From contig WHSR01000009.1 in the NCBI GenBank assembly GCA_009379995.1, positions 997-64,996 on the forward strand: DNA of 64,000 nt, read 5' to 3'. Both the position numbers and the translations under genes were made by a program. Under the pieces are notes generated by a model that saw only the letters and a list, made by a program, of their open reading frames with translations, did no database searches and was not told the DNA's origin. This stretch comes from Streptosporangiales bacterium (GTDB taxonomy: Bacteria; Actinomycetota; Actinomycetes; Streptosporangiales; WHSR01). Below, one piece after another: positions 2,033 through 60,615 of this stretch; position 1 is the first letter of the stretch; the number at the start of each line of letters is the position of its first letter.

Positions 2033-2049
2033 GCTACCGTGGCGGTAGC
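2033..2049. promoter_or_regulatory. Perfect inverted repeat GCTACCG-tgg-CGGTAGC just upstream of the XRE regulator start
   Basis: Read directly from the sequence. The GCTA(G/C)CGTG core recurs at 2022, 60921 and 62287. Confidence 0.35.
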
Positions 2050-2062
2050 GGAAGGGAGGGCC

Positions 2063-3479
2063 ATGGCGCGGCGCCGGTTGCGGCTCATCCAGCGACGCAA
2101 GACGGTCGGCTATACCCAAGAGGAGCTGGCCAACTTGCTTGGCATGGAACGCTCGACCGTAGTGCGCTGGGAAAAGGGACAGACCGAGCCGCTGCCGTGG
2201 GTACGGCCGGGCCTGGCGGGCCTGCTCAAGTTAAGCGCGGACGAACTCGACGCCCTGCTTAACGATGTCACAGTGGTCGCCGGAGGCGATGAGGCCGCCG
2301 CGCCTGCCGCACCGACACTTCTTGACTTCTCGCTCACCTCTGACGAGACGGTGAGTGTCATGGAGCAATTCTCGGCGCGCGACCTGGCCAGCCGTCGCCA
2401 GGTGTTGGCAGAACTATCGGTCCTGACCGGTGACGCCTTGCTTCGGTCGGTTCGGTCATGGGTGGCGTCACTGCCGTCTGGCGAAACTCATGCCGAGGTT
2501 GGCTTCGACGAAGTAAGCCAGCTCGAAGAGGCCGTGAAGCTCTTTCGTCGGTGGGATGCGTCTGGCCTTGGCGGCCTGCAGCGCAAGGCCGTCGTCGGCC
2601 AGCTCAACGCGATGACCGAAACTCTAAATGAACGTCGCTCACCAGCGATCAGGCAGCGACTCTTCAGCATTACCGCCGAACTGGCGCAACTCAGCGGTTG
2701 GATGGCGTACGACCAGGGGCTGTATGGCGTAGCTCAGCGCTATTACATGCTCGCCCTGCACGCTTGCCGCGAGTCGGCCAATTCCGAGCTGGGCGCCAAG
2801 ATTATCGGCGACATGACGCAGCTCTCCACTGCGCTCGGCCACTACGACGACAGCCTGTCGTTCGTGCACACAGCGCTCTACAGCCTGCCGCGCGGCAGCA
2901 ACCCGCTGGTACGTTCCGAGCTGCTTGGCTTGGAAGCACGCGCCTACGCGCACCTCGGAAGGAGCGAAGCCGCCAACGCCGCCCGCTCGGGCGAAAGCTG
3001 TGTCGAGGTCTACCACGAAGGCGCCGTCGAGACTCGGCCGGACTGGATTCACTACATGAACCAGGCCGAGGTGGACTGCCTCGCCGCCAATACGTACATC
3101 GAGCTGGCCCTGCACGAAACCGATGCGACAAGAACCAAGCGCTATGCCGCTCGAGCAGAGCACTACACCACTAACGCCTGTGAGCGCCGCGGCGAGCTCT
3201 ATACCCGCAGCCGCATATTTTGATGAGGTCCGCCTGGCCAAGGTGCGCCTGGCCCAGCGCGAGCCTGACGAGTCCGTCGGAGTCGGATTGCGTTCGCTCT
3301 CGCTTGCTCAAGGTGCGCGCTCATCACTGATTGTTGATTGGCTGCTGCGCTTCGATGCCGAACTACAAGCGCGCTACCCGAAGGTGAGATCCGCACGACA
3401 GTTTCACGACCAGCTCACCGCCTACGTTAGGAAAGCGGCGCCGCGAAAGGAAGGCAACCTCCGTGGTTCCGGAACTTGA
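2063..3479 (+). pseudogene. XRE-family HTH + TPR-like transcriptional regulator, frame broken at T-run 3218-3221
   Basis: MARRRLRLIQRRKTVGYTQEELANLLGMERSTVVRWEKGQ.. HTH. ORF ends ..TRSRIF-TGA at 3223. The expected continuation (F)DEVRLAKVRLAQREPDES..QFHDQLTAYVRKA runs in the frame of ORF 3123..3479. Removing one T restores a single ORF. Confidence 0.7.
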
Positions 3480-4023
3480 GTTCCGCACCCTCGACGGCGA
3501 GCAGGCCAGGCGGCATCTTGACGAACTCAGCACCCTCTACCTCGAGGTCTACGCGGAGCCGCCGTATGAGTGGGGCGACGAACACGCCGCGCTGTTCCGG
3601 GAGCGCTTCGAGGTGCAGCGTCGGCAGGACGGGTTCAGGCTGGTCGAGGCGCGGGTAGACGGCACGCTCGTGGGTGTTGGCTTTGGCGTCACGCTGCGAT
3701 CCTCCTCGCCGTGGTGGCAGAACCTGCTCACCCCGCTGCCGGAGCAAGTCACGCGTGAGTACCGGGGTCGCACCTTTGCCGTAGTGGAACTCCTCGTACG
3801 CGCACCGTGGCGTCGGCGGCATATAGCCAGCACCATTCACGATCTGTTGCTTGCCGACCGCCCCGAGGAACGCGCCACGCTCACTGTGCTCCCAGAAGCC
3901 ACCGCCGCCCAGGCCGCCTACCGTAAGTGGGGATGGCGGAAGGTAGCACAGAAGCGGAATCCACTGCCGGGGTCGCCGGTGTTCGATGTGATGGTGAAGA
4001 GGATCCCGCAACCTGAACGCTGA
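3463..4023 (+). CDS. GNAT family N-acetyltransferase
   Basis: ORF track. Typical actinobacterial GNAT layout (..FRLVEARVDGTLVGVGFG.. / ..VELLVRAPWRRRHIASTIHDLLL..). Confidence 0.8.
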   Translation: MVPELEFRTLDGEQARRHLDELSTLYLEVYAEPPYEWGDEHAALFRERFEVQRRQDGFRLVEARVDGTLVGVGFGVTLRSSSPWWQNLLTPLPEQVTREYRGRTFAVVELLVRAPWRRRHIASTIHDLLLADRPEERATLTVLPEATAAQAAYRKWGWRKVAQKRNPLPGSPVFDVMVKRIPQPER

Positions 4024-5439: not shown

Positions 5440-6426
5440 TCAGAGGGCGAGGCGGGCGAGGATGGGGGCGTGGTCGGAGCCGGGCTCGCCGCGGCGCGCA
5501 CCCGGATCGTTGCCGATGGAGGGCAACTCCGCGCTGGTCTTTCCGCCGGCCTCCCCGCTGGCCTTGCCGCCGACCTCGCTGTGCACCTCCTCCACCCGGC
5601 CCAGCAGCGCATGGCTGACCAGGATGTGGTCGATCAGCTCGGGGCGGTCCCGGTGGACGCGGGAGTACCGCTGGTCGTCGGGGAGCAGCGGGGCGAGGTT
5701 CCACAGCCGCCACGCGTCCCCCTGGTCGGACCTGGACGCCGCCGCGGTGCCGAGCTCTGAGCCGGGCGGGCCGAGCAGGATCTGGGTGGTGGCCGCCTGC
5801 GGCTCGTCGTTGAGATCCCCGAGCACGACGACGGCCCGCTTCTCTCCCTTGCCGTCGATCAGGTCGTCGGCGAGCCCGCGCACGGTGGCCGCCTCGGCGG
5901 CGCGCCGGTTGAGGGCGTACGCGCCGTAGCGAGCCCGCTCCGCCTCGTCCCGGGGGTTGAACCGCCCGCCGGGGAACGTCAGCAGCTTGGACTTCAGGTG
6001 GCACACCGCGACGTCCAGGGTCTTGCCGCGTGCCGGTTTCACCCGCACCGCCAACGCACCCCGCCCCATCCGGGTGCTCTGCGCACCGGAGTCGTCGGCC
6101 CGCAGCGGCGGCATCTCGGGACGGAAGTCGACCACATCGGACAGCACAGTGGCCGGAAACCGGCTCAGCACGCCGACGCGAATGCCGCGCCCGTCCGGGT
6201 GCTCTGACAGGAGAGGGTCGCCCCACTTGCCCTTCAGCCGCTCGATCAGGTCGGCTAATGCCTCCGGGTCACCGATCTCCTGCACCCCCAACACGTCCGG
6301 CGCCAACCGGTTGATGGTGTCCGCCAGCGCGGACAGCTTCGCCTCGTAGGCGGCGTCATCGTCCGGGCCGAAGCCACCGCCCGGACGGTAGAGGTTCTCC
6401 AGGTTCCAGGTACCGACGACGACCAC
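5440..6426 (-). CDS. Endonuclease/exonuclease/phosphatase (EEP) family protein
   Basis: MVVVGTWNLENL.. N-terminus and ..GSDHAPILARL C-terminus typical of EEP. GTG start with GAGGAGG. Confidence 0.85.
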   Translation of the reverse strand: MVVVGTWNLENLYRPGGGFGPDDDAAYEAKLSALADTINRLAPDVLGVQEIGDPEALADLIERLKGKWGDPLLSEHPDGRGIRVGVLSRFPATVLSDVVDFRPEMPPLRADDSGAQSTRMGRGALAVRVKPARGKTLDVAVCHLKSKLLTFPGGRFNPRDEAERARYGAYALNRRAAEAATVRGLADDLIDGKGEKRAVVVLGDLNDEPQAATTQILLGPPGSELGTAAASRSDQGDAWRLWNLAPLLPDDQRYSRVHRDRPELIDHILVSHALLGRVEEVHSEVGGKASGEAGGKTSAELPSIGNDPGARRGEPGSDHAPILARLAL

Positions 6427-7899: not shown

Positions 7900-8475
7900 A
7901 TGGCCATGGGACCCCAACCCCAGACCGCCGGCCCGGCGGTCGGCGACGTGGCACCGGACTTCACCCTGCGCCGCACCTTCGACGAGTCCGTCGACCTTGG
8001 CCGGCTGCGCGCGGACGGGCCGGTTCTCGTCCACTTCTATGTCTTCGACTTCGGCGGGATATGAACGCCGGAGCTGTCCCAGTTGGGACGGTTGACGGAG
8101 GAGATCCGGTCCCTCGGCGCCGGCATCGTGGCGATCGCGGTGACGGCGATCTTCTCCCAGCAACGCTTCGCGCGCGAACTCGGCGTCGACTTCCCCCTCC
8201 TCTCGGACTGGAATGGGGACGCCTGTACGAGTTACGGGGTTCGCTACGACGTCTGGAAGGGCCACAAGGGCCTGGCGAAGCGCTCGGTGTTCGTCGTCGA
8301 CCCCGTCGGCGTGATCCGGTACAGGTGGGTCACTGACGACGCCAACGAGGTTCCGGACTTCGGACCGGCAATCGACGTCCTGCGCACCCTCGGCGCACCC
8401 TCGGCGCACCCTCCGAGGGCGACACCTCCTCCCGATGACGACACGGATATCCCAAAAACCGTCGATGACATATGA
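7900..8475 (+). CDS. AhpC/TSA (AhpE/Bcp-like) thioredoxin-fold peroxiredoxin with in-frame TGA (8062-8064) at the catalytic Cys position. Candidate selenoprotein, or a nonsense pseudogene.
   Basis: ATG 7900 ..VGDVAPDFTLR..PVLVHFYVFDFGGI-TGA-TPELSQLGRLTEEI..AKRSVFVVDPVGVIRYRW. The upstream part and ORF 8083..8475 are in the same frame. Confidence 0.6.
8068..8098 (+). other. SECIS-like RNA hairpin immediately 3' of the in-frame TGA
   Basis: CCG-G-AGCUGUCCC-AGUU-GGGACGGUU-GA-CGG. Upper stem is 9 bp including G-U pairs. The apical-loop GU is at nt 21-22 counted from the U of UGA. Confidence 0.4.
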
Positions 8476-8505: not shown

Positions 8506-10034
8506 ATGAGCGGCGTGATCGCGCCGAAGGGTTCCCTGGGCACCGAGACGGTGACGAGGGGCCTGCTCATCGGGGGTGAGGAGGTCCCGGCCGCCTCGGG
8601 GCGACCCTGCCGGTGCACAATCCCGGGCACGAGGTCGCACGGGTCGCGGCGGCGGGTCCGGAGGACGTCGACCGGGCGGTGGCCGCCGCGGACGCGGCGT
8701 TTCGATCGGGGAGCTGGAGCGAGCTGCCGATCGCGGGGCGGGCACGCGTCCTCAATCGCTTCGCCGACAACATGGAGCGCCGCATCGAGGAGTTGTACCG
8801 GCTGGAGACCCTCTACAACGGCCGGCCGATCGCCGAGACCAGGGCGCAGATCGCCCGGCTCCCGGAGTGGTACCGCTACAACGCGGCCCTCCTGCTCGCC
8901 GACCGAACGGCGGTCATTCCGATGCCGGGCCCGTACCACTCCTACACGGAGCGGTTTCCCCTCGGCGTGGTCGGGATCCTCTCGTCCTTCAACCACCCGC
9001 TGATGATCGGCTCGAAGAGCCTGGCACCCGCGCTTGCCGCCGGCAACAGCGTCGTACTCAAGCCGTCCGAGCAGACGCCGATGACGAGCATCGTCCTCGG
9101 CGAGATCGCCGCCGAGTCCGGCTTTCCCCCGGGGGTCTTCAACGTCGTCCAAGGACTCGGACCGGTGGCCGGGGCTGCCCTCGCCGAGCACCCGGCGGTC
9201 GCGAAGGTCACCTTCACCGGCGGCACGGAGGCGGGCCGCACGGTCGCGGCCGCCACGGCGAAGCGGTTCGCCAAGGTCACCCTCGAGCTGGGCGGCAAGA
9301 GCCCGGTCCTCGTCTTCGCCGACTCCCCGGTCGAGGAGGCGGCGCGTGGGGTGGCGTTCGCCGGCTTCATCGGGGCCGGCCAGACCTGCATCGCGGGCAC
9401 CCGCGTGCTCGTGCAGCGGGAGATCCACGACGCGTTCGTCGACGCGCTCGTGACGCAGGCCGAGCGCATCCACATCGGCGATCCGGCCCTGCCGGAGACG
9501 CAGCTCGGCCCGGTCATCTCGGCACGGGCGAAGGAGCGGGTGCTGAACTACGTCGAGCTGGGGCTCGGCGAGGGTGCGCGGCTAGCGGCCGGCGGCGACG
9601 CGCCCGACGTGCCGGGCTGCGAGGGCGGCTTCTTCGTTCGCCCGACGGTGCTCACCGGTGTCCGCAACTCGATGCGGGTCGCCCGCGAGGAGATCTTCGG
9701 TCCGGTGCTCGTCGTGGTGGAGGTCGACGACGAGGCGGACGCGATAGCGCAGGCGAACGACTCGCCGTACGGCCTCGGCTCGGCGATCTGGACCCGGGAC
9801 GTGGCACGCGCCCATCGAGTCGCCGGCCGGCTGACACACGGGATCGTCTGGGTCAACGACCACCACCGGCTCGACCCCGCGTCACCGTGGGGCGGGGTGC
9901 GGGACAGCGGCGTCGGCAGGGAGAGCGGCTGGGAGTCGTTCCACGACTTCACCCACGTCCGCGCCGTCACAGTCCGGACGGCGCCCGACGAGGTCGACTG
10001 GTACGGCCGCGCGAACGTGGATCGGCTGAACTGA
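8506..10034 (+). pseudogene. NAD(P)-dependent aldehyde dehydrogenase, N-terminal about 33 codons in a different frame (break at G-run 8598-8601)
   Basis: ATG 8506 with GAGGAGG RBS gives MSGVIAPKGSLGTETVTRGLLIGGEEVPAASG. The ALDH body (..LPVHNPGHEV..ELGGKSP..GQTCIAGTR..) continues in the frame of ORF 8613..10034. One extra G restores ..AASGATLPVHNP.. Confidence 0.8.
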
Positions 10035-11470: not shown

Positions 11471-13252
11471 ATGCCGCCACCGGCGATGGTGGTCGAGAAC
11501 TACAGCTTCTGGTACAAGCTGTCCGAGGGACGCGAGGCTCTTGCCCTCCACGACGTGTCGTTCGAGGTGAGCAAGGGCGACTTCGTGCTCGTTCTCGGCA
11601 TGAGCGGCTCGGGCAAGAGCACGCTGGCGCTGAACCTCGTCGGCGTATACCCGGACTACTTCGGCGGCCGCAACGAGGGCCGCATCCTGGTCGACCACGC
11701 CGAGAAGGGCCTGGTCAACCGCAGGGAGCTGGATCGAGGCCAGCGTTTCCACACCGTCAACATGCTCTTCCAGAACCCGGAGGAGCAGATCGTCACGCTG
11801 ACGGTCGAGGAGGAGATCGCCTTCGCACTGGAGAACTACCTGGTGCCGCGCGGGGAGATCGGCGAGCATATCGACGCGGCGCTCGACCTCGTCGGCCTGA
11901 ACGGGTTCCGGCGCCGGCCGACCCACCAACTGTCCGGTGGCGAGAAGCAGCGGGCCGCCCTCGCCGCGATGCTGGCGATGCGGCCGCGGGTGCTCATCCT
12001 GGACGAGCCGACGTCGAACCTCGACCCCGTCGGCACCGAGGAGGTGCTCGACGCGGTCGGGCGGATCCGCGAGCGGAGCGACGTCACGCTGATGGTCGTC
12101 GAGCACGAGGTCGACGCCGTCTTCGACCAGGTCGACAAGGTGCTCCTGGTGGACGGGAAGACCGTGCACGGCCCGAACACGCCGCGCGAGTTTCTCGCCG
12201 GGCACGGTCTCGACGTCCGCGATCGCATGGGTCTGTGGATCCCGCAGGCCAGCGAGGTGGCCCTCGAGCTCGGCCGGGCCGGGGTGTCTCTGCCAACTGT
12301 CCCGCTCAACGGGGAGGAGCTGGTCGCGGCGGTCCGGGACACGATCGATTCCGATCAGGTACCCATCGCCGCGCCAGTACCCCCACCCGCACCTCCTACC
12401 GAACCCCCGTCCGTGGAGCCCGGCGAGGTGGTGATCGAGGTCCGGGACGCGAGCTTCTCCTACCCCTCGCGGCCGGACGTGCTCCGAGGGGTCAACCTCG
12501 CCGTACGGCGGGGCGAGCTGCTCGCCATCGTGGGGCAGAACGGCTCGGGCAAGTCGACGCTCGCCGCCCACTTCAACGGGATCCTCAAGCCGAGCGCCGG
12601 TGAGGTGCTCGTGCACGGCAAGCCGACGACGAAGTACAAGCTCGCGGACCTGGTGCGGCGGGTCGCGTACATCTTTCAGGTGCCGGAGAAGCAGTTCATC
12701 CGCAACACGGTGTACGAGGAGATGGCACACGGTCTGCGGGCGCTGCGGCTGGCCAACGACGAGGTCCGGGAACGGGTGGACCGGTTCCTGGAGAGCGTGC
12801 GGCTGCTGGACCGCAAGGAAGCGAGCCCGTACGTGCTCAGCCACGGCCAGAAGCGGCGGCTGTCGGTCGCCTGCATGGTCATCGCCGGACCGGACGTCGT
12901 GGTCCTCGACGAGCCGACGTTCGGGCAGGACTACCAGCAGGCCCAGCGGCTGATGCGACTGCTCCGGGCGCTCGCCGACGACGGTGCGGCCGTCGCGTTC
13001 ATCACCCACGACATGCGCCTGGTCGCCGAGTACGCCGACCGGTGCGCCGCGATGGCGGACGGCAAGGTGATCTTCGACGGGTCGGTGCCCGACCTGTTCG
13101 CCGGCTCCGACGTTCTGGCGCGGGCGAGGTTGACCCCACCGGCGGTCCACGGGTTCTCCGCGGAGTTGCTCGGCGAGCCGTGCCTGGACACCGCCGAGGT
13201 GCGGGAGCGGATCAAGGAGGCGATCCATGGGCGATCTCGAACTCTCCTATAA
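11471..13252 (+). CDS. ECF transporter duplicated ATPase (EcfA-EcfA' fusion, YkoD-like)
   Basis: Two ABC cassettes: GMSGSGKST/LSGGEKQR/LILDEPTSNLD and GQNGSGKST/LSHGQKRR/VVLDEPTFGQD. ATG 11471 after GGAGAGG. Confidence 0.9.
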   Translation: MPPPAMVVENYSFWYKLSEGREALALHDVSFEVSKGDFVLVLGMSGSGKSTLALNLVGVYPDYFGGRNEGRILVDHAEKGLVNRRELDRGQRFHTVNMLFQNPEEQIVTLTVEEEIAFALENYLVPRGEIGEHIDAALDLVGLNGFRRRPTHQLSGGEKQRAALAAMLAMRPRVLILDEPTSNLDPVGTEEVLDAVGRIRERSDVTLMVVEHEVDAVFDQVDKVLLVDGKTVHGPNTPREFLAGHGLDVRDRMGLWIPQASEVALELGRAGVSLPTVPLNGEELVAAVRDTIDSDQVPIAAPVPPPAPPTEPPSVEPGEVVIEVRDASFSYPSRPDVLRGVNLAVRRGELLAIVGQNGSGKSTLAAHFNGILKPSAGEVLVHGKPTTKYKLADLVRRVAYIFQVPEKQFIRNTVYEEMAHGLRALRLANDEVRERVDRFLESVRLLDRKEASPYVLSHGQKRRLSVACMVIAGPDVVVLDEPTFGQDYQQAQRLMRLLRALADDGAAVAFITHDMRLVAEYADRCAAMADGKVIFDGSVPDLFAGSDVLARARLTPPAVHGFSAELLGEPCLDTAEVRERIKEAIHGRSRTLL

Positions 13253-14054
13253 GGAAGCGGAGTCACCGTTCCACCGAATGGACCCGTTCTCCAAGACGCT
13301 TTTCGTCATCGCCGTATCGTTCGTGGCGATCTTCAACTCGCGGCTGACCGTCGGTGTCGCGCTGTTCTTGTTCACGTTCTTCTGCGCGGCCTTCCTTTCC
13401 GGCGTTTCGCTGCGCACGTACTGGACGTTCGGGAAGGTGATCCTGCCGTTCATCGTCATCCTCGCGGTCGTCTTCCCGTTCTTCTACGCCGGTCAGGTGA
13501 CCGCCGGCTCGGAGGCGATCGCCATCCACACCCCGATCAAGGACCTGACCTGGGGCGCGCTCGGCTTCGGCGGCCTCCTCGCGCTGCGGTTCCTGGCCAT
13601 CGGCTTTTCCGGGCTCACCTTCGCGTTCACCACGCATCCGACGGATCTCGTGCAGAGCTTCTCCCGGCGCGGGCTCGACTACCGGCTCGTGCACGCTCCG
13701 GTGCTCGGGCTCGTCCTGTTCCCCTCGTTCCTCCAGCTCGGCCGGGACATCTCGACCACGCAGCGGATCCGCGACCTCGGGCACGATACGAACTGGCTGA
13801 CCCGCAAGTGGCGGCGGATGAAGCACCTGGCGTTCGCGATGCTCGTGCTCGGGCTGCGCAACGGCCAGACCCAGGCGATGGCGCTCGACATCCGGGGGTA
13901 CGGCGCGCACAAGACCCGAACGTTCATGCGGGAGTCGCCGTCCAGCAGGGCGGGGAAGGTCTTCGCGTGGACGTTCTTCGCGATCTCGGTCGGCTATCTC
14001 ATCCTTCAGTTCGGCAGCCTGTCCGGAGCGATGCCCTGGGATCTCAGCCGCTGA
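13227..14054 (+). CDS. ECF transporter transmembrane (T) component, EcfT/CbiQ family
   Basis: ORF track. ..SPFHRMDPFSKTLFVI.. N-terminus typical of CbiQ/EcfT. Confidence 0.85.
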   Translation: MGDLELSYKEAESPFHRMDPFSKTLFVIAVSFVAIFNSRLTVGVALFLFTFFCAAFLSGVSLRTYWTFGKVILPFIVILAVVFPFFYAGQVTAGSEAIAIHTPIKDLTWGALGFGGLLALRFLAIGFSGLTFAFTTHPTDLVQSFSRRGLDYRLVHAPVLGLVLFPSFLQLGRDISTTQRIRDLGHDTNWLTRKWRRMKHLAFAMLVLGLRNGQTQAMALDIRGYGAHKTRTFMRESPSSRAGKVFAWTFFAISVGYLILQFGSLSGAMPWDLSR

Positions 14055-14056
14055 CA

Positions 14057-14082
14057 GACCCCTCGCCGTGACCCCTCGCCGT
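14057..14082. repeat. Tandem duplication of the 13-mer GACCCCTCGCCGT (x2) abutting the palindromic element
   Basis: Read directly: 14057-14069 = 14070-14082. Confidence 0.85.
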
Positions 14083-14135
14083 GATCTTGCAGAAATTCAA
14101 ATCCGGTCTGATTTGAATTTCTGCAAGATCACGGC
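14078..14135. repeat. AT-rich perfect palindromic element, copy 1 (25-bp arms, 8-nt loop). Probable bidirectional terminator or REP/MITE-like repeat.
   Basis: GCCGTGATCTTGCAGAAATTCAAAT-ccggtctg-ATTTGAATTTCTGCAAGATCACGGC between convergent ecfT (+) and the BVMO (-). The core recurs at 52739-52794. Confidence 0.9.
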
Positions 14136-27061: not shown

Positions 27062-28162
27062 ATGCGCAGCCAGTTCCACGCCGAGAACGTCGGCAGCCTG
27101 CTCCGTCCCGCCGAGCTGCTGTCCGCCCGCGCCGACCACGGGGCCGGCCGCATCGACGACGAGGCGCTGCGAAAGGCCGAGGACCATGCGATCGAGCGCG
27201 CCATCGAGCTGCAGCGGGAGGTGGGCCTCGAGATCTACTCCGACGGCGAGTACCGACGGCTGTCCTTCCTGAGCACCCTGGCCGACGCGGTGGACGGCTT
27301 CACCGACGGGCACAGCAATCTGGCCTGGCGGGGCGACGACAGCCAGGAGGACAGGCGCAGCACGGCTAAGGTGGTCGGCGCCCCTATCCAGCAGCGTCGA
27401 CGCCTCAGCGCGCACGAGGTCCCGTTCCTCGCCGCGAACGCTCCCGGCCCGTACAAGGCGACCGTGCCGGACCCGACCCACTTCACCATCGCGAGCTGGC
27501 AGGCGGGTATCAGCGACCGCGCCTATCCGCGGCGGACCGACCTGCTACCGGACCTGACGAGGATCGTCCGCGCCGAGGTCGAGACGCTGATCGCCGACGG
27601 CGTGCCGTACGTCCAGCTCGACGCGCCGGGGCTGACGCTGCTGTGCGACGAGCGGGTTCGCGAGCAGTTGTCCGCCGACGGGACCGACCCCGACGCGCTG
27701 CTCGACGCCTGCATCGAGGCGGACCGGGCCTGTGTGGAAGGCCTGTCGCGCGACGGCGTGACGATCGCGATGCACCTGTGCCGGGGCAACTCGCGCGGCC
27801 GCTGGATCGGCGAGGCCGGCTACGACCGGCTCGCCGCCAAGCTCTTCCAAGGCGTGCCCGTGGACACCTGGCTGCTGGAGTACGACACCGAGCGCGCCGG
27901 CGACTTCACGCCGCTGCGGCACATGCCGCGCGGCGTGACCGTGGTGCTCGGATTGATCAGTACGAAGACCCCTCGGTTGGAGGACCCCGACGACTTGGCC
28001 CGACGCATCGAGGAGGCCGCCCGCTACGTGCCGGCGGAGGATCTGGCCCTCAGCCCGCAGTGCGGCTTCGCGTCCATCGCCAGCGGCAACCCGGTCACCT
28101 GGGACGACCAGCGCCGGAAGCTCGAACTCACGGTGAACACCGCACGTCTCGTCTGGGGCTAG
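27062..28162 (+). CDS. Cobalamin-independent methionine synthase II (MetE C-terminal domain-like) family protein
   Basis: MRSQFHAENVGSLLRPAELL..EIYSDGEYRR..LSPQCGFAS.. Confidence 0.85.
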   Translation: MRSQFHAENVGSLLRPAELLSARADHGAGRIDDEALRKAEDHAIERAIELQREVGLEIYSDGEYRRLSFLSTLADAVDGFTDGHSNLAWRGDDSQEDRRSTAKVVGAPIQQRRRLSAHEVPFLAANAPGPYKATVPDPTHFTIASWQAGISDRAYPRRTDLLPDLTRIVRAEVETLIADGVPYVQLDAPGLTLLCDERVREQLSADGTDPDALLDACIEADRACVEGLSRDGVTIAMHLCRGNSRGRWIGEAGYDRLAAKLFQGVPVDTWLLEYDTERAGDFTPLRHMPRGVTVVLGLISTKTPRLEDPDDLARRIEEAARYVPAEDLALSPQCGFASIASGNPVTWDDQRRKLELTVNTARLVWG

Positions 28163-28171
28163 GGCTCTCCT

Positions 28172-28236
28172 CGCCGAGATCTATGTTGTGGGGGTCGTTT
28201 TGTCCGATTCGCCCCCCCACAACATAGATCTCGGCG
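28172..28236. terminator. Long perfect hairpin (23-bp arms) between convergent genes
   Basis: CGCCGAGATCTATGTTGTGGGGG-19 nt-CCCCCACAACATAGATCTCGGCG. Confidence 0.65.
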
Positions 28237-28239
28237 GGG

Positions 28240-28629
28240 TCATCGTGCGTAGAGCTCGACGCTGGCGTAAGAGCCGCCGGCGGTCAGCTTCGCATCGCAG
28301 GTGACGAGAGGACAGTCAAGACCCTCGGCCAGCGCGACGAAACAGGTGTCGTAGGCGGTCACATTGGCGAAGAGGGCCCATGCGCGGGGCAGAAGGTCGG
28401 TGACCGGGTGTCGTTCGATCCGCAGAGACATGAAGTCGTCGAGCGCGGCATCGGCCTCCGCTCTGCCGAGCTTGCCGCCGAGGGTAAGGCCGCGGATGGC
28501 GTGCAGGAATTCGCCATCGATCAGGTGCGGGGCGTGGATCGTGGTGCCGGCGATCCGATCGAGAAGCGCCGGGTCCGGCCGCCGGGCCGCCAGTGCCTCC
28601 ACGACCGCGGAGGTGTCGACGACGATCAC
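28240..28629 (-). CDS. vapC: PIN-domain toxin VapC
   Basis: VIVVDTSAVVEAL..YDTCFVALAEGLDCPLVTCD.. GTG overlaps the antitoxin stop (GTGA). Confidence 0.9.
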   Translation of the reverse strand: MIVVDTSAVVEALAARRPDPALLDRIAGTTIHAPHLIDGEFLHAIRGLTLGGKLGRAEADAALDDFMSLRIERHPVTDLLPRAWALFANVTAYDTCFVALAEGLDCPLVTCDAKLTAGGSYASVELYAR

Positions 28630-28865
28630 CCCTCGCGCCTTTCGCGGATGATGGCGACGATGTCCTCGGTGGAGGCACCGCCACCCCCGCGACGACGTCG
28701 CTCGGCCGCTCGGTACAAGATCTCCGAATTCGATGGACGCCGGGTGATCTCGGTGAGGAGTTGGCGGACATAGGCGGACAAGGCCAGCCCCTGCTCGGCG
28801 GCCCTGGTGCGTAGCGCCGCGTAGGTGTCGTCGGGCAGGTCGCGAACCTGAAGCGTTTTCGCCAT
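28626..28865 (-). CDS. vapB: Ribbon-helix-helix (FitA/VapB-like) antitoxin
   Basis: MAKTLQVRDLPDDTYAALRTRAAEQGLALSAYVRQLL.. Confidence 0.85.
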   Translation of the reverse strand: MAKTLQVRDLPDDTYAALRTRAAEQGLALSAYVRQLLTEITRRPSNSEILYRAAERRRRGGGGASTEDIVAIIRERREG

Positions 28866-28877
28866 ACCCGCACCTTA

Positions 28878-28906
28878 GCATGCAATGCATGCAATGCATG
28901 CATTGC
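28878..28906. promoter_or_regulatory. Operator-like array: GCATGCAAT x2, then a 16-bp perfect palindrome GCAATGCATGCATTGC
   Basis: Read directly. Lies 13-40 nt upstream of the vapB start. Confidence 0.6.
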
Positions 28907-33763: not shown

Positions 33764-34924
33764 TCAGGACGTGAGCAGGTGGGCGTTGATCTCCCGTACC
33801 CGGTCGGCGAGGTCCGAGAGCTCGACGACCTCGACGCCCGCGTCGCTCAGATTCCTCGCCCCCCGGGGGTCGACGAAGATCGCGGGTTCCCGCCAGGCGA
33901 AGACGACTCGGCGGATGCCCGCGGCCAGGATGAGCTCAGTGCAGCTGCGCGGCCGGGAGGCCCGGCTGCTGCACGGCTCTAGCGAGCTGTAGAGCGTCGC
34001 CCCGGCGAGACGGGGGTCGGCCGGGGCGACCTTGGTCAGCGCGGCCTCCTCGGCGTGGTCGCGCGGGTCGCGTTCGCGCGAGTACCCGGTGGCCACGACT
34101 CCGTCCGCGTCGACGATGATCGCGCCGACGGAGAACGCGGTCGTCGAGGGCGGGCAGTTCCGGGACAGCTCGATCGCCTTGCGGAGCCACAGCCGGTCGG
34201 CCTGCGTCGGGTCGGCGGCCGCGTCGGTCATCGCCACGACCTCGTGGGCCGGCCCCAGCAGGTAGCGCAGCAGCAGCACGTCACCCATCCGGCGGACCTC
34301 GGCCAGCCGCATCGGGTCTGCCGGGCCGTGCGGAAAGGAGCCGGGGCCGGTGAGGCGCGGTGCCGCCGGATCGCCGACGAAGAAGGGCGCGATCGCCAGA
34401 TGCAGCTCGTCGGCCAGCCCGGCGGTCAGGAACTGGGTGAGCGTACGGGTCCCGCCCTCGACCATCAGCCGGCGCACGCCGCGGCGAGCCAGGTCGGCGA
34501 GGACGGTTCGCAGGTCGAGGGGGTCACCGGCGTCCACAAGGGTCGCGACGTCGGACAGGACCTTCCGGGTCTTCTCGACCGCCGGGCGCGCACAGTACAC
34601 GAGCTTTTCGGCATCCCCGAGGGCGAAGAACCGGGCCGCCTGATCCAGGTCGCCGTCGCCGGTCAGGGTGACCTTGATGGGGTTCTCCGGCAGGCCGCGG
34701 GCGGCCCGCGCCTCGCGGCGGGCCGCGGAGCGGACCAGCAATCGGGGATCGTCCCGGCGTACGGTGCCCGCGCCGACCAAGATCGCGTCGCAACCGGCTC
34801 GGACCTCATCGACCCGGTCCAGGTCCTCGTCGTTGGACAGCAGCAGCCGAGCCTCGCCCGCGTCGTCGATGTACCCGTCCACCGAGACCGCACAGGACAC
34901 CAGCACGTAGGGGCGCTCGACCAC
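33764..34924 (-). CDS. RibD-like bifunctional protein with inverted domain order (N-terminal reductase, C-terminal deaminase)
   Basis: N-terminus ..YVLVSCAVSVDGYIDD..ILVGAGTVRRDDPRL..RLMVEGGTRTLTQFL.. (RibD_C). C-terminus ..HAEEAAL..LEPCSSRASRPRSC.. (RibD-type Zn deaminase motif). Confidence 0.8.
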   Translation of the reverse strand: MVERPYVLVSCAVSVDGYIDDAGEARLLLSNDEDLDRVDEVRAGCDAILVGAGTVRRDDPRLLVRSAARREARAARGLPENPIKVTLTGDGDLDQAARFFALGDAEKLVYCARPAVEKTRKVLSDVATLVDAGDPLDLRTVLADLARRGVRRLMVEGGTRTLTQFLTAGLADELHLAIAPFFVGDPAAPRLTGPGSFPHGPADPMRLAEVRRMGDVLLLRYLLGPAHEVVAMTDAAADPTQADRLWLRKAIELSRNCPPSTTAFSVGAIIVDADGVVATGYSRERDPRDHAEEAALTKVAPADPRLAGATLYSSLEPCSSRASRPRSCTELILAAGIRRVVFAWREPAIFVDPRGARNLSDAGVEVVELSDLADRVREINAHLLTS

Positions 34925-35328
34925 TAGGAAGCTTCACCACCCGGCGTTGTGATCACGAGCCCCTGGTTCTTGGCGGCGGGGGCAAGGCGCCGGTCGTAGG
35001 TGACGAAGGCCTCGACGTCGCCGCGTAGCTGCAGCGCGGTGGCCAGGTGAATCGCGTCGAGAGTGCGCAGATGCGGATCTGGAAATCGGCTCGCGACCTC
35101 GACCAACGCGCGGGTGATGGCGACCTGACCGACACGGGTCAGCAGCAAGTCCGCTCGCGATATCTGGGAGGGGTCCTCTCGCAAGACGGCCCGCCGTGTC
35201 TCCACGGTCAGCAAGACGCTCGACACTAAGGCGGCGTCCCTCCGCTCGGCGAGGAAATGCTGGAGCGCCTCGCTCTCCGGCTCCGCCCACACGAGCTTCA
35301 CGAACGCCGAGGTGTCGACGTAGATCAC
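34924..35328 (-). CDS. vapC: PIN-domain toxin VapC
   Basis: MIYVDTSAFVKLV..LRTLDAIHLATAL..FVTYDRRL.. Confidence 0.9.
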   Translation of the reverse strand: MIYVDTSAFVKLVWAEPESEALQHFLAERRDAALVSSVLLTVETRRAVLREDPSQISRADLLLTRVGQVAITRALVEVASRFPDPHLRTLDAIHLATALQLRGDVEAFVTYDRRLAPAAKNQGLVITTPGGEAS

Positions 35329-41174: not shown

Positions 41175-41432
41175 GTGGTCAACATCCAGATTCGGGAAGT
41201 CCCAGACCAAGTGAAGGATACCCTCGCTGAGGCGGCGAGAGCGCGAGGTCAGTCCATGCAGGTCTACTTGAGGAACCTCCTGGAAGAAGATGCACGCCGT
41301 GCTGGCAACGTCGCGATGCTCAAGCGGTTGCGCGGTATGGGCGGTGGCTATGTCGCGGCCTCTGGGGAAACCGCGCAGGAGCTTGACCTGATTCGCGCCG
41401 AGCGCGACCGCCGGAATGCCGGCGATGCATGA
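41175..41432 (+). CDS. vapB: Ribbon-helix-helix (FitA/VapB-like) antitoxin
   Basis: MVNIQIREVPDQVKDTLAEAARARGQSMQVYLRNLL.. Paralogue of 28626..28865. Confidence 0.85.
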   Translation: MVNIQIREVPDQVKDTLAEAARARGQSMQVYLRNLLEEDARRAGNVAMLKRLRGMGGGYVAASGETAQELDLIRAERDRRNAGDA

Positions 41433-41833
41433 TCGTCATCGACGCTTCTCTCACGGTCGACGCTCTCACCGACGACGGGCGCATGGGAGATCTCGCGCAG
41501 GCCGCCCTGGCGGCCGATCCCCACTGGGTGGCCCCGGAGCACCTTCGAGTGGAGGTGACCTCGGCGATCCGCGGGAGGTTGCTGGCGGGCAAGGTCGCCG
41601 ACGAGCGCGCCAACGAAGCCGTTCGAACGCTCAACCTACTCGTGATCACCTACGTGACATGGGAAGAGATCGCGGAGCGGGTATGGGAACTCCGGCACAA
41701 TCTCACCCCGTACGATGCCGTATACATAGCACTCGCCGAGGTGCGTGGCTGTCAGGTCGTGACCACCGACCAGAAGCTGCTCAACTGCTCTGCCCGCCGT
41801 TGCCCGGTCGAGGTTGTCGGCTCCGCCGCGTAG
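41429..41833 (+). CDS. vapC: PIN-domain toxin VapC
   Basis: MIVIDASLTVDAL..TPYDAVYIALAEVRGCQVVTTDQKL.. ATGA overlap. Confidence 0.9.
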   Translation: MIVIDASLTVDALTDDGRMGDLAQAALAADPHWVAPEHLRVEVTSAIRGRLLAGKVADERANEAVRTLNLLVITYVTWEEIAERVWELRHNLTPYDAVYIALAEVRGCQVVTTDQKLLNCSARRCPVEVVGSAA

Positions 41834-51815: not shown

Positions 51816-52724
51816 GTGACCAGCGGAGTCGGCGATCCTCCCGGGGCGACGCCGGCTGGCGGCGAGGCCGCGGCCAAGGGCGGCCTGTGGCGGCTCGCCC
51901 TCGGCGTCTTCGTCCAGCACCGCGCGGCGCTCTTCGGTGTCGGCATCGTCGCCTTCATGGCGCTGTTCTCGTTCCTCGGGCCGGTCTTCTACCACACCGA
52001 CCAGGTGCACACCAACCTGTCGCGGGCCAACCTGCCGCCGAGCGCGGCCCACCCGCTCGGCACCGACGACGTCGGCTACGACATCTTGGGGCGGCTGATG
52101 CTCGGCGGCCAGACCTCACTCGAGGTCGGGTTCGCGGCGGCGCTCGTCGCGACCGGCATCGGCACCCTGTGGGGCGCGATCGCCGGGTTCACCGGGGGGT
52201 TCCTCGACGGGTTCATGATGCGCATCGTCGACGGGATCATCGCGATACCCACCCTGTTCCTGCTGCTCTACCTGTCGACCGTGTTCCAGCCGAACACGCT
52301 CCTCCTCATCCTCGTCATCGGGCTCGTCGCCTGGCTCGGACCGGCCCGCCTCGTCCGCGGCGAGGCGCTCACCCTGCGGACCCTCGAGTATGTCGACGCG
52401 GTACGCATGATGGGCGGCACCCGCCGGCGCATCGTCGGCCGGCACGTGATCCCGAACACGATCGGCACCATCATGGTCAACACCACGTTCCAGATCGCCG
52501 ACGCGATCCTGATTGTCGCCGCGCTCAGCTTCCTCGGCCTCGGCCCGCCGGCACCGGCGACGAACTGGGGCGCCATGCTGTCCAACGGGGTCAACTACAG
52601 CTACGCCGGGTACTGGTGGCTCATCTATCCGCCGGGGCTGGCCATCGTGCTCACCGTGACGGCGTTCAACTTCATCGGCGACGCCCTGCGCGACGCCTTC
52701 GAGCAACGCCTACAGCGACGCTGA
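51816..52724 (+). CDS. Peptide ABC transporter permease (DppC/OppC-like)
   Basis: ..PLGTDDVGYDILGRLMLGGQTSL.. and ..VDAVRMMGGTRRRIVGRHVIPN.. Confidence 0.9.
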   Translation: MTSGVGDPPGATPAGGEAAAKGGLWRLALGVFVQHRAALFGVGIVAFMALFSFLGPVFYHTDQVHTNLSRANLPPSAAHPLGTDDVGYDILGRLMLGGQTSLEVGFAAALVATGIGTLWGAIAGFTGGFLDGFMMRIVDGIIAIPTLFLLLYLSTVFQPNTLLLILVIGLVAWLGPARLVRGEALTLRTLEYVDAVRMMGGTRRRIVGRHVIPNTIGTIMVNTTFQIADAILIVAALSFLGLGPPAPATNWGAMLSNGVNYSYAGYWWLIYPPGLAIVLTVTAFNFIGDALRDAFEQRLQRR

Positions 52725-52738
52725 CACCCCTCTTTCTG

Positions 52739-52794
52739 GTCGTGATCTTGCAGAAATTCAAACTTGCTGGGTTGAATTTCTGCAAGATCACGAC
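52739..52794. repeat. AT-rich perfect palindromic element, copy 2 (23-bp arms, 10-nt loop)
   Basis: GTCGTGATCTTGCAGAAATTCAA-acttgctggg-TTGAATTTCTGCAAGATCACGAC between a convergent permease (+) and the D-aminoacylase (-). Confidence 0.9.
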
Positions 52795-56444: not shown

Positions 56445-58501
56445 GCCGCCGGCCCGAGGGGAAAATGGCAGGCCGCGCGGTGTCCATCCGTCCCCAGGGC
56501 ACGCAGCTGCGGCTCCTCGTGGGCGCAGACCTCCTCGGCAAATGGACAGCGAGTACGGAAACGGCAACCGGACGGCGGGTGGATCGCGCTGGGCAGCTCG
56601 CCGGTGACCCCCACCGCCCGCTTCTCCTTCTCCCGCCAGGGGTCGGCGGCGGGGACAGTATCGATCAACCCGCGCGTGTAGGGATGTCGGGGCCGCTCGT
56701 ACACCGAGTCGGCCGGGCCGATCTCGACGAGCTTGCCGAGGTACATCACGCCGATGGTGTCGGAGAGGTACCGGATCACCGACAGGTCGTGCGAGATGAT
56801 CACGTACGTGAGGCCGTGCCGGCGTTGCAGGTCCTGCATCAGGTTGAGGATCTGCGCCTGGATGGACACATCCAGCGCGGAGACCGGCTCGTCGGCGACG
56901 ACCAGCTGGGGGTTCAGGGTGAGCGCGCGGGCGAGGCCGACGCGCTGCCGCTGCCCGCCGGAGAACTCGTGCGGATAACGGTCCACCGCCCGGCGGGGCA
57001 GGCCGACCTCATCGAGCAGCTCCGCTACCCGCCGTTCCTGTTCTCGACGGGAGCCGATGCCCTGGATGACCAGCGGCTCGCGCAGGATCCCGCCGACCCG
57101 CATCCGCGGGTCCAGCGAGCCGTAGGAGTCCTGGAACATCAGCTGCACGCCACGACACAGCTGGCGCAGCGCCCGGCCGCGCACCCGGGAGAACTCCTGG
57201 CCCTCGACGCGTACGGTTCCCGCGCTCGGTCGCTCCAGCCCGACGACGAGCCGACCAACCGTCGTCTTGCCGCACCCGGACTCGCCGACGAGCCCGAAGG
57301 TACTACCGCGCGGCACGTCGAAGGTGACGTCGGCGACGGCGGAGACCCTGCCCACCCTGCGCTGCAGCACGGCACCCGCGGTAACCGGGAAGTCCTTGAC
57401 GACGTGATCGACCTCGAGCAACGGCTCCGCTCGGTCGTTCGAACCGACCTCGGACGCCGCCTCACCGGCCCCGCCGTCGCGGAGAAGCCGGTACCGCACG
57501 TGGTCCCGCGCCGAGGGCTCGCTGACCTCGGGCCGGCCCACCGGGTGGATGCAGGCGAACAGGTGATCCGGCACATCTCCGTCGAGCGTTGGGTCGACGT
57601 CGCGGCACTCGTGCGTGGCGTAGCGGCAGCGGGGGGCGAACCGGCAGCCGGACGGTGGGTTGGTCAGGTCCGGTGGCAGCCCGGGGATGCTGTAAAGCCG
57701 GCGCCTGGTCTCGGCGGCGTTCTCCGGCAAGCCGGTGAACAGCGCCTCGGTGTACGGATGGCGGGCGTTGGCGTACAACGTCTCGGTGTCGGTCGTCTCC
57801 ACCACCCGGCCGGCGTACATCACCGCGACCCGGTCGGCGCGACCGGCGATGACGCCGAGATCGTGCGTGACCAGGATCACCGCCATGCCCAACCGCCGGC
57901 GCAGGTCGTCGATGAGTTCGAGTATCTGCTTCTGGATCGTGACATCCAGGGCGGTGGTGGGTTCGTCGGCGATGAGCAGCTTGGGTTCGCAGGCCAGCGC
58001 CATCGCGATCATCACACGCTGCCGCATGCCGCCGGATAGCTGGTGCGGGTAGTCGCCCGCCCGCTCCTCGGGATGCGGCATGCCGACCAGCCGCAGCACC
58101 TCGATCGCCCGATCCAGCGCCTCCTTCCTCGAGACGTCCCGGTGCAGCAGCATCGATTCGGCGATCTGCGCACCGATCCGGATCGTTGGGTTCAGCGAGG
58201 TCATCGGGTCCTGGAAGATCATCCCAATGTCGTTGCCCCGCACGTGGCGCATCTGGTCGTCGGACAGCGTGGTCAGGTCGGTGCCGTCCAGGACGATCCG
58301 ACCACCCGTGACGTGGCCGCCGGGAGGCAGCAGACGCATCACCGACAGCGCGGTCATCGTCTTGCCGCAGCCGGACTCGCCGACCAGGCCCAGCGTCTCT
58401 CCCGGCTGCACCTCCAGGCTTACCCCGTCGACCGCGCGCACCGTCGTGCGCCGGAGATCGATCCGCGTGTGCAGGCCCTCGATCCGCAGCAGCGGTGGCA
58501 T
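56441..58501 (-). CDS. Peptide ABC transporter ATP-binding protein, fused DppD-DppF double cassette
   Basis: Two cassettes (GESGCGKT x2, LSGGMRQR / FSGGQRQR), each with an oligopeptide-type C-terminal extension. ATG 58501 after GGGAGGG. Confidence 0.9.
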   Translation of the reverse strand: MPPLLRIEGLHTRIDLRRTTVRAVDGVSLEVQPGETLGLVGESGCGKTMTALSVMRLLPPGGHVTGGRIVLDGTDLTTLSDDQMRHVRGNDIGMIFQDPMTSLNPTIRIGAQIAESMLLHRDVSRKEALDRAIEVLRLVGMPHPEERAGDYPHQLSGGMRQRVMIAMALACEPKLLIADEPTTALDVTIQKQILELIDDLRRRLGMAVILVTHDLGVIAGRADRVAVMYAGRVVETTDTETLYANARHPYTEALFTGLPENAAETRRRLYSIPGLPPDLTNPPSGCRFAPRCRYATHECRDVDPTLDGDVPDHLFACIHPVGRPEVSEPSARDHVRYRLLRDGGAGEAASEVGSNDRAEPLLEVDHVVKDFPVTAGAVLQRRVGRVSAVADVTFDVPRGSTFGLVGESGCGKTTVGRLVVGLERPSAGTVRVEGQEFSRVRGRALRQLCRGVQLMFQDSYGSLDPRMRVGGILREPLVIQGIGSRREQERRVAELLDEVGLPRRAVDRYPHEFSGGQRQRVGLARALTLNPQLVVADEPVSALDVSIQAQILNLMQDLQRRHGLTYVIISHDLSVIRYLSDTIGVMYLGKLVEIGPADSVYERPRHPYTRGLIDTVPAADPWREKEKRAVGVTGELPSAIHPPSGCRFRTRCPFAEEVCAHEEPQLRALGTDGHRAACHFPLGPAA

Positions 58502-58590
58502 CTGCCCTCCCGTGCCCCTTCCCATGCCCTCCCCTCCGGCCGGTCGGTCCCATGATCCCCGCGTCCGAACCGCCCAGCAAGGAAGGCGGT

Positions 58591-58777
58591 GTGGTCCTGT
58601 TGACCGTCAGGGCCGAGCGGCGTACAGGCGGCGGCTGGTCTGGCAGGGCTGGCGCGAACACCGCGGCCTGTGGTGGGCGTTGTCGTGGACAAGTTCCGTC
58701 CCGACCGCTTCGACCTCATCGGTGCCGGCATCTGCCTGCTCGGCGTCGCCATCATCATGTACGCACCGCGCGGCTAA
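58591..58777 (+). pseudogene. ynfA: ynfA (UPF0060 small membrane protein) remnant with an internal deletion and frame changes
   Basis: ..[16 protein letters not shown] / [15 protein letters not shown] / [33 protein letters not shown] occupy three frames. About 45 central codons are absent. Confidence 0.5.
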
Positions 58778-58905
58778 CCGGACCTCGCAGCGGCGTCCTT
58801 TGTTCTCTCAGGGCGGATCCTGTCCGCTCCCGTGGGGGAAGGTGTAGCTCCAGGCACGTTGTTTGCCGAGTCAATCGTGACCTCAACGCAGAGGCGGGAG
58901 CAGGC

Positions 58906-60423: not shown

Positions 60424-60615
60424 CTCCGATGAATGGGCCATTCAACAGTAGGCAAGCCCTGTTACCTGTGTAAACAGTAGTTATTGATCTTGCCGGGTAC
60501 GCTGAGGGTGCCCACCGACCCGCTGACCGACGCGCAGCGCGCCATGCCAGGAGTGGCGGACGCGCTGGCGGCGGCAGGGGTCGAGCGCCCGGACCGGAGT
60601 CGAGAAGGTCGCCGG

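Follow-up and report, generated by a model that had tools for sequence, protein, structure and literature searches.

Two long palindromic hairpins, H1 and H2, lie 38.6 kb apart in convergent gene gaps of the 64-kb stretch of DNA from an uncultured soil actinomycete (Streptosporangiales) analysed here (the whole stretch is referred to as the window), and the base of their stem is found again in hairpins at gene ends of related genomes. H1 and H2 belong to a small, lineage-specific family of gene-end hairpins that is shared with relatives. Our preferred reading, to which we assign a probability of about 0.55, is that they represent a lineage-specific palindromic gene-end element, which would act as a bidirectional transcript-end hairpin without a U-tract and which would be copied or homogenised within genomes.

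H1 (positions 14078-14135), which was delimited by direct reading of the sequence and with a repeat finder, is a perfect hairpin with fully (100%) complementary 26-nt arms and a loop of 6 nt (Table 1). The original prediction of a perfect hairpin of 25 bp with an 8-nt loop was thus right about the perfection of the stem, but one pair short in its size. The neighbours of H1 are an ecfT-like gene (CbiQ, plus strand) and a gene for a Baeyer-Villiger/FMO-like monooxygenase (BVMO, minus strand), which converge on the element; the permease matches GEV03_05245, a protein of a Streptosporangiales MAG, with 100% identity. H1 had been placed exactly between the two stop codons, which applies to the ecfT stop, located outside the hairpin, but not to the BVMO stop, which lies within the right arm. 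The alignment of the monooxygenase with its homologs covers the conserved domain to its end, past which the tails of the homologs comprise 0 to 25 residues. Since the alignment reaches the end of the conserved domain, H1 supplies the stop codon of the BVMO gene without the enzyme being truncated.

Next to the left arm, TRF identified the 13-nt unit GACCCCTCGCCGT in 2.2 copies with 100% matches (14057-14084), whereby the last 5 nt of the duplication are at the same time the outermost 5 nt of the arm. This duplication, which is real, had been considered a possible footprint of either an insertion or replication slippage. Since it is present on one side of H1 only, it does not represent a target-site duplication, and from this one-sidedness together with the arm bases it contains we conclude that it goes back to a later slippage event; slippage next to the palindrome would have generated the tandem duplication secondarily. 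The 13-nt unit was rejected as a dispersed motif, since its count is not above that in shuffles. A 12-nt exact tandem duplication (GGCGTAGGACCC x2) is located directly after the ecfT stop in a relative with 88% identity (L048, 4478-4510; also in L049), at a position analogous to that of the 13-nt duplication and with a different sequence; it sits in a short ORF upstream of a split AhpC gene.

H2 (52739-52794), for which the repeat finder reported perfect 23-nt arms, shares with H1 a 21-nt core, CGTGATCTTGCAGAAATTCAA, which occurs four times in the window, once in each arm of the two hairpins, and which was not encountered in any of 100 dinucleotide-preserving shuffles (0 occurrences expected by chance). 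The earlier observation that the core recurs at this distance with another loop and other outer bases is therefore confirmed for both arms of H1 and H2. Alignment in both orientations showed that the identity between the two hairpins is confined to the arms, the loops being unrelated. Outside the core, the stems differ yet pair (GCCGTG...CACGGC in H1, GTCGTG...CACGAC in H2), with a covarying outer pair that is C:G in H1 and T:A in H2 and that corresponds to one double change. From the identical arms at two unlinked loci we conclude that they are the result of recent copying, either by transposition or by gene conversion.

Table 1 Positions of the hairpins H1, H2 and H3 and of their adjoining features in the window.
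Feature	Position	Strand	Remarks
EcfT/CbiQ-type permease stop codon TGA	14052-14054	+	gene 13227-14054
13-nt exact tandem duplication, GACCCCTCGCCGT x2	14057-14082	+	C-rich spacer abutting H1, one side only
H1 left arm, 26 nt	14078-14103		core 14080-14100 (+); conserved stem base GTGATCTTGCAG 14081-14092
H1 loop CGGTCT	14104-14109		
H1 right arm, 26 nt	14110-14135		100% complementary to left arm; core 14113-14133 (-)
BVMO stop codon TGA	14129-14131	-	inside H1 right arm, from core CGTGATC
H3, different sequence	28169-28239		26-nt arms with one G.T, 19-nt loop; GC-rich apex
DppC/OppC-type ABC permease stop codon	52722-52724	+	gene 51816-52724; followed by C-rich spacer CACCCCTCTTTCTG
H2 left arm, 23 nt	52739-52761		core 52741-52761 (+)
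H2 loop region ACTTGCTGGG	52762-52771		A.G mismatch and one more C-G pair, leaving a 6-nt loop
H2 right arm, 23 nt, perfect	52772-52794		core 52772-52792 (-)
Amidohydro_3 gene stop codon TAA	52797-52799	-	2 nt from H2 arm
Tails after the hairpins			H1, CTGTGGGAG and GCGAGGGGT; H2, TGTTAGTGG and CAGAAAGAG

Folding as RNA yielded -57 to -64 kcal/mol per 121 nt (z about -7.5), and 0 of 200 shuffles were as stable; as RNA, the H1 and H2 loci exceed the stability of shuffles by about 7 sd whichever strand is taken, and as DNA by 11-13 sd. In 70-nt windows, the folds reach -44.5 kcal/mol for H1, -40.4 kcal/mol for H2 and -48.8 kcal/mol for a third hairpin, H3, at a background of -25.4 +/- 6.0 kcal/mol in the window. 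The GC content of the hairpins amounts to 0.42-0.46, that of the window to 0.64-0.74. Five stems of at least 12 bp with no more than one mismatch exist in the 64 kb, which are two 12-bp GC-rich stems inside genes as well as H1, H2 and H3. The latter are the only stems of at least 20 bp, and all three of them touch or overlap stop codons in convergent gaps, to which about 3% of the window belongs. The remaining convergent gaps of the window contain only weaker, ordinary structures.

H3 fills the gap between the stop codons of a MetE-like gene (28160-28162, plus strand) and of a PIN-domain ORF (28240-28242, minus strand). Its left base, CCTCGCCGAGATCT, matches that of H1, CCTCGCCGTGATCT, at 13 of 14 positions (CCTCGCCG-GATCT). 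Because coding sequences of this genome often contain the word GCCGAGATC, the excess of which over shuffles is also found inside genes, the match leaves kinship uncertain. H3 has the same architecture as H1 and H2, and its kinship to their family is possible but unproven.

The PIN-domain ORF beside H3 is one of three such VapC-like ORFs within 14 kb (28240-28899, 34924-35328 and 41429-41833), which suggests the presence of several toxin-antitoxin modules. A GC-rich imperfect hairpin (60514-60583; -47.9 kcal/mol in 70 nt) is situated in the 581-nt convergent gap after an MFS gene (58495-60423). Besides a DUF6221 ORF, an XRE-type HTH ORF (2039-3223) and a GNAT ORF, the segment 1-4000, with a GC content of 0.64 compared to about 0.70, contains several ORFs that had no match in Pfam; it may have been acquired. 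An inverted repeat at 1515-1577 that resembles the stem base of H1 and H2 was rejected as a chance similarity; it is located within ORFs and pairs over only 8 bp.

The 12-bp stem base, GTGATCWTGMAG / CTKCAWGATCAC, recurs in hairpins of two other Streptosporangiales assemblies. One of them, L052c (4479-4530 of L052, an NCBI Streptosporangiales MAG), has the arm GTGATCATGAAGGGT with 14-15 bp, is located 11 nt after the dppC stop and occupies the position orthologous to H2. The other one (3613-3668 of the JGI contig L056) has the arm CCGTGATCATGAAGACTTCGGG with 21-22 bp and is located in a co-directional gap, 18 nt past the stop of an epimerase gene. Across the four hairpins, GTGATC-TG-AG and CT-CA-GATCAC are invariant, and the two variable positions of the stem base switch on both arms together, from T:A to A:T and from C:G to A:T. 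When the 15 basal pairs of the four sequences were considered, 96.6% of the cells were paired, with 10 pairs invariant and 4 changed on both sides, and sliding the partner by 1-3 columns as a control lowered pairing to 27-52%; coming from four sequences in two near-identical pairs, this conservation of pairing is an indication rather than proof. In their apical halves, H1 and H2 are identical to each other, whereas hairpins from different genomes are unrelated there, and L052c and the L056 hairpin have no AT-rich apex. In all four members, a C-rich, G-poor spacer of 11-18 nt separates the stop codon from the hairpin, the length at H1 leaving out the duplicated 13-nt unit.

From the same stem base at gene ends in two other assemblies we conclude that a dispersed, sequence-conserved family exists. 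The original prediction of such a family instead of a one-off terminator is borne out by this recurrence and by the homology of H1 and H2, which is restricted to the arms. With regard to relatives, the exact core was not found in them, but the stem base is present in L052 and L056; nine more loci of relatives, with a total of about 107 kb, yielded no further family member. Between L052c and H2, 10 of the 12 base positions are kept and the apical parts are unrelated, and the synonymous sites of the gene beside them are saturated (80% protein identity). The retention of the base despite this saturation, together with the replaced apex, suggests either that the base sequence is under constraint or that the element was overwritten from a pool specific to the genome.

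At the dppC-amidohydrolase junction, L053, L054, L055 and L056, in which the gene order is the same and DppC is 77-81% identical to that of the window, have gaps of 21, 35, 21 and 6 nt, respectively, and no hairpin. Since the hairpin is missing at the junction of H2 in these four relatives, the element must have been gained or lost. In L052 (GCA_050698355.1), the DppC is 80% identical and the C-terminus of the amidohydrolase resembles that encoded in the window. This MAG has a two-copy hairpin family of its own with a sequence unrelated to H1 and H2, consisting of a perfect 23-bp hairpin (6155-6204; AATGTGTCAGTATCTCAGCCCGC), which precedes the amidohydrolase stop in the convergent gap, and a diverged second copy of 18 bp (9952-9995; GTGTCAGTACCTCAGCTCG). 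In 10 kb of its sequence, L052 has four intergenic hairpins. In L051 (Logan SRR7608161), which has the closest DppC with 85% identity, about five tandem copies of a unit of approximately 30 nt (GGAAACACCCCRYTGCACGACCGTCRGG-like; 3215-3380) follow directly after the dppC stop, which is the site of H2 in the window.

A hairpin after ecfT is absent in five relatives, in which the downstream genes are different ones and co-directional (AhpC, cupin). H1 is therefore located at a synteny break, because relatives (L048, L050, L059 and L060) run from ecfT into these co-directional AhpC/cupin genes. In the window, the convergent monooxygenase gene follows ecfT, and an AhpC-like ORF is located upstream at 8083-8475. 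Past the epimerase/PRISE gene, L053 (7081-7123) and L055 (2434-2476) carry another, GC-rich hairpin of 12 bp (ACCGCCCGGGTGG, 17-nt loop), and at the same post-epimerase site L056 carries its 21-bp GTGATC-family hairpin (3613-3668), a case of hairpins turning over at one and the same gene end.

Exact copies of the element number at least two, both within the window. The central 13+13 palindrome had no match in the JGI metagenomes, and a single 21-mer arm had two matches there, both of them in low-GC (0.36-0.42), non-palindromic coding DNA and due to chance; these results say little on near relatives, because the best JGI relative has only 77-79% protein identity. IMG/VR contained no match for the core and none for the degenerate base pair of the stem, and blastn against plasmids and phages returned nothing relevant to the core. 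The matches listed for the 18-mer GATCTTGCAGAAATTCAA in genome contigs (L001-L047) are single, non-palindromic and from AT-rich genomes, and were rejected as chance. In Rfam, there was no match at the gathering threshold and, below it, only noise from miRNA-precursor hairpins.

Going beyond the observed structure, positions, family kinship and presence or absence in relatives, we infer a function in termination or 3′-end formation and a mode of spread. Because H1 and H2 are palindromic, a hairpin would form in the RNA from both converging genes, which could serve as a two-way transcript-end signal without a U-tract (an "I-shaped" hairpin). Such a hairpin might pause or terminate RNA polymerase, possibly with the help of Rho, NusG or a head-on collision, and/or block 3′ exonucleases, and the perfect duplex of 23-26 bp would be long enough to be a substrate of RNase III. 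Copy-and-paste or gene conversion may make or overwrite copies, which would render them alike within one genome.

The members of the family are located at 3′ junctions only, either convergent or co-directional, and none is found at a 5′ end. From their distance of 11-18 nt past stop codons and their exclusive position in 3′ junctions we argue that the family represents transcript-end hairpins, as is the case for TRIT, which comprises 147 conserved palindromic copies at gene termini of M. tuberculosis that are mostly bidirectional and often overlap the stop codon (PMC3152330). The original prediction had favoured a family over a terminator; while the family stands, the contrast does not, since it is a false choice and the most probable function of the family is one like that of a terminator.

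Canonical intrinsic (L-shaped) terminators consist of a GC-rich hairpin of about 5-14 bp that is at once followed by a U-tract of 7-9 nt. H1 and H2 have no U-tract on either strand, for which reason they are not canonical terminators, and a terminator scan was empty at both of them. For intrinsic terminators, mycobacterial RNA polymerase is reported to depend on a U-tract (mBio 2014, PMC3993855), and in a Term-seq study of M. tuberculosis, predicted TRIT and I-shaped sites overlap few of the mapped 3′ ends (10.1101/2022.06.01.494293). From these two reports we conclude that autonomous termination by the bare hairpin is doubtful. In addition, stems of 23-26 bp far exceed the needs of termination, and perfect stems would be expected from recent copying as much as from function. 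Stem-loops are generally enriched in convergent gaps and at less than 50 nt from stop codons, and some of them are repeat families (PMC1590033). Convergent gaps are also the places where a selfish insertion does least harm, which counts against reading the placement as functional.

The family resembles TRIT in being a palindromic hairpin that is conserved in sequence and structure, bidirectional and located at or over gene termini, as found for H1 and H2, and further in being dispersed in a high-GC actinobacterium, clade-restricted and devoid of the canonical U-tract logic. However, TRIT is confined to Mycobacterium, whereas H1 and H2 occur in Streptosporangiales; there are 147 TRIT copies per genome compared to 2 known copies in 64 kb here; and conservation between genomes is limited to the stem base in our case, the apical half being replaced. 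Because the host order differs, H1 and H2 are unlikely to be members of TRIT. Term-seq of S. clavuligerus revealed that 353 strongly structured 3′ ends are devoid of a U-tract and that 55 ends are bidirectional, the latter having longer stems and less read-through (PMC8269248). H1 and H2 are like these I-shaped ends in that they are very stable, U-tract-less hairpins at gene ends of a high-GC actinomycete, in which bidirectional ends are the longer-stemmed ones; the likeness extends to structure and convergent position only, the Streptomyces ends having been mapped on RNA. They differ from them in that the Streptomyces ends are individual, non-repeated and GC-rich, whereas H1 and H2, which are AT-rich compared to their genome, have much greater length and a sequence that recurs at different loci and in different genomes. 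H1 and H2 are best filed as a new family of a known kind, i.e. dispersed palindromic gene-end elements, and, as bacterial repeats go, gene-end hairpins that are spread by copying are rather ordinary.

A competing explanation, which is possible albeit considerably less probable than our preferred reading, is that H1 and H2 are purely selfish, non-autonomous mobile elements (MITE, foldback or REPIN-like), the outer 12 bp of which would be the recognition ends of a transposase encoded elsewhere; convergent gaps would then merely tolerate insertion, and effects on transcripts would be incidental. This would be in line with arms that are identical although the two loci are unlinked and differ in their flanks, with conserved ends around an interior that varies across genomes, with the patchy presence at the orthologous junction, with the location of H1 at a synteny break, with a GC content that is low for this genome and with the origin of the BVMO stop codon from the element. 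However, no direct repeats surround H1 or H2, the sole duplication being one-sided, and Pfam revealed no transposase, RAYT, Y1_Tnp or integrase domain among the about 55 ORFs of the 64-kb window. A parent IS with this end was not seen in JGI metagenomes, IMG/VR, plasmids or phages either, and all four members are located at a constant short distance past a stop codon, behind a C-rich spacer, which looks like functional placement.

Among the elements of this type, REPs and REPINs are present in tens to hundreds of copies per genome, and RAYTs are IS200-like Y1 transposases, the genes of which are usually flanked by REPs. REPs are short (20-40 nt) imperfect palindromes with a stem of 5-13 bp and an unpaired GTAG or CGTC tag, and convergent REPs are located within 20 bp of both ORF ends (PMC3733652). 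The phyla with CGTC repeats given in the same paper omit Actinobacteria, a word that is absent from its main text. Like H1 and H2, REPs and REPINs are genome-specific extragenic palindromes, mostly at convergent or co-directional junctions (PMC3733652, PMC3116915, PMC2817692), which are found near the 3′ ends of ORFs, have been proposed to act in termination or mRNA stabilisation and are homogeneous within a genome. In contrast to REPs, H1 and H2 have perfect stems of 23-26 bp and share no flanking tag (neither GTAG nor CGTC), and, while a REPIN consists of two inverted palindromic REPs, the single 26-nt arm of H1 folds at 0 kcal/mol, similar to shuffles. The element had been described as REP/MITE-like, and the REP part of this description is not supported in view of the missing tag, the length of the stems, the non-palindromic arms and the fact that the RAYT/TnpA(REP)-like gene that was to be looked for was not found among the about 55 ORFs of the window.

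MITEs are characterized by terminal inverted repeats, a target-site duplication and a parent IS with the same ends. H1 and H2 resemble MITEs and foldback elements in being short and non-coding, with conserved ends, a variable interior and a patchy presence in relatives, but direct repeats flank neither H1 and H2 nor L052c and the L056 hairpin, and one perfect palindrome makes up the entire element. With no flanking direct repeats and no IS with this end found in JGI metagenomes, IMG/VR, plasmids and phages, the MITE part of the description is not supported either. Integron attC sites are imperfect palindromes with R''/R' core sites (RYYYAAC / GTTRRRY) and extrahelical bases; this identity was rejected, as the stems of H1 and H2 are perfect and without bulges, core sites are absent from the arm ends and an integrase is absent from the window. 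Together with attC, readings of H1 and H2 as CRISPR, operator or promoter were rejected on anatomy.

A more novel reading, which we regard as unlikely, is that the stem base GTGATCWTGMAG would be the recognition module of a dedicated factor of an uncultured Streptosporangiales clade and that the hairpins would form a mobile, factor-coupled terminator system. The factor might be a protein that binds duplex RNA and acts in termination or processing, or else a novel enzyme by which "terminator cassettes" are copied to gene ends. If true, such a system would explain U-tract-less termination in high-GC actinomycetes and would be a second, independent case beside TRIT.

It is still less probable that the palindrome is a protein site in double-stranded DNA, i.e. 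an AT-rich patch for a nucleoid-associated protein (e.g. Lsr2) or the operator of a regulator. The conservation of the base sequence itself (10 of 12 positions between H2 and L052c despite unrelated apices) and the AT-rich centre in a genome with 70% GC would fit such a site; however, the sites are located at the 3′ ends of genes and not at promoters, with no promoter-like sites found, any operator is much shorter than arms of 23-26 bp, a binder of duplex DNA does not need perfect pairing through a variable apex, and H3 and the L052 family share the architecture with GC-rich or unrelated sequences. An outward-facing bidirectional promoter in the AT-rich palindrome, which would send antisense RNAs into both converging genes, is hardly credible. 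The TTGCAG in the arm, followed by an A/T-rich hexamer about 17 nt later, speaks in its favour, but the promoter scan gave no site at H1 or H2, L052c and the L056 hairpin have no AT-rich apex, and the apex of H3 is GC-rich. Two independent ad hoc terminators that are alike by chance, or an assembly artefact in the form of a chimeric inverted repeat, which the short-read MAG as source and the two copies seen might suggest, are effectively refuted by the 21-nt identity on both arms (0 of 100 shuffles), by the exact fit of both hairpins between intact, homolog-supported gene ends and by the recurrence of architecture and stem base in independent NCBI and JGI assemblies.

As it stands, the H1/H2 family is a modest, descriptive addition to the known repeats, and its motif marks the ends of transcription units for the annotation of these MAGs; if activity is shown, the element could become a compact bidirectional insulator part. 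To our knowledge, no terminator-like motif with a conserved sequence has been described to date other than mycobacterial TRIT. A second family, with a conserved stem base and in another actinomycete order, would offer a comparative handle on how transcripts end without U-tracts in high-GC actinobacteria. The turnover of the apex between genomes, together with its identity within a genome, bears on the recognition of such hairpins by factors and on how they are gained, lost and copied.
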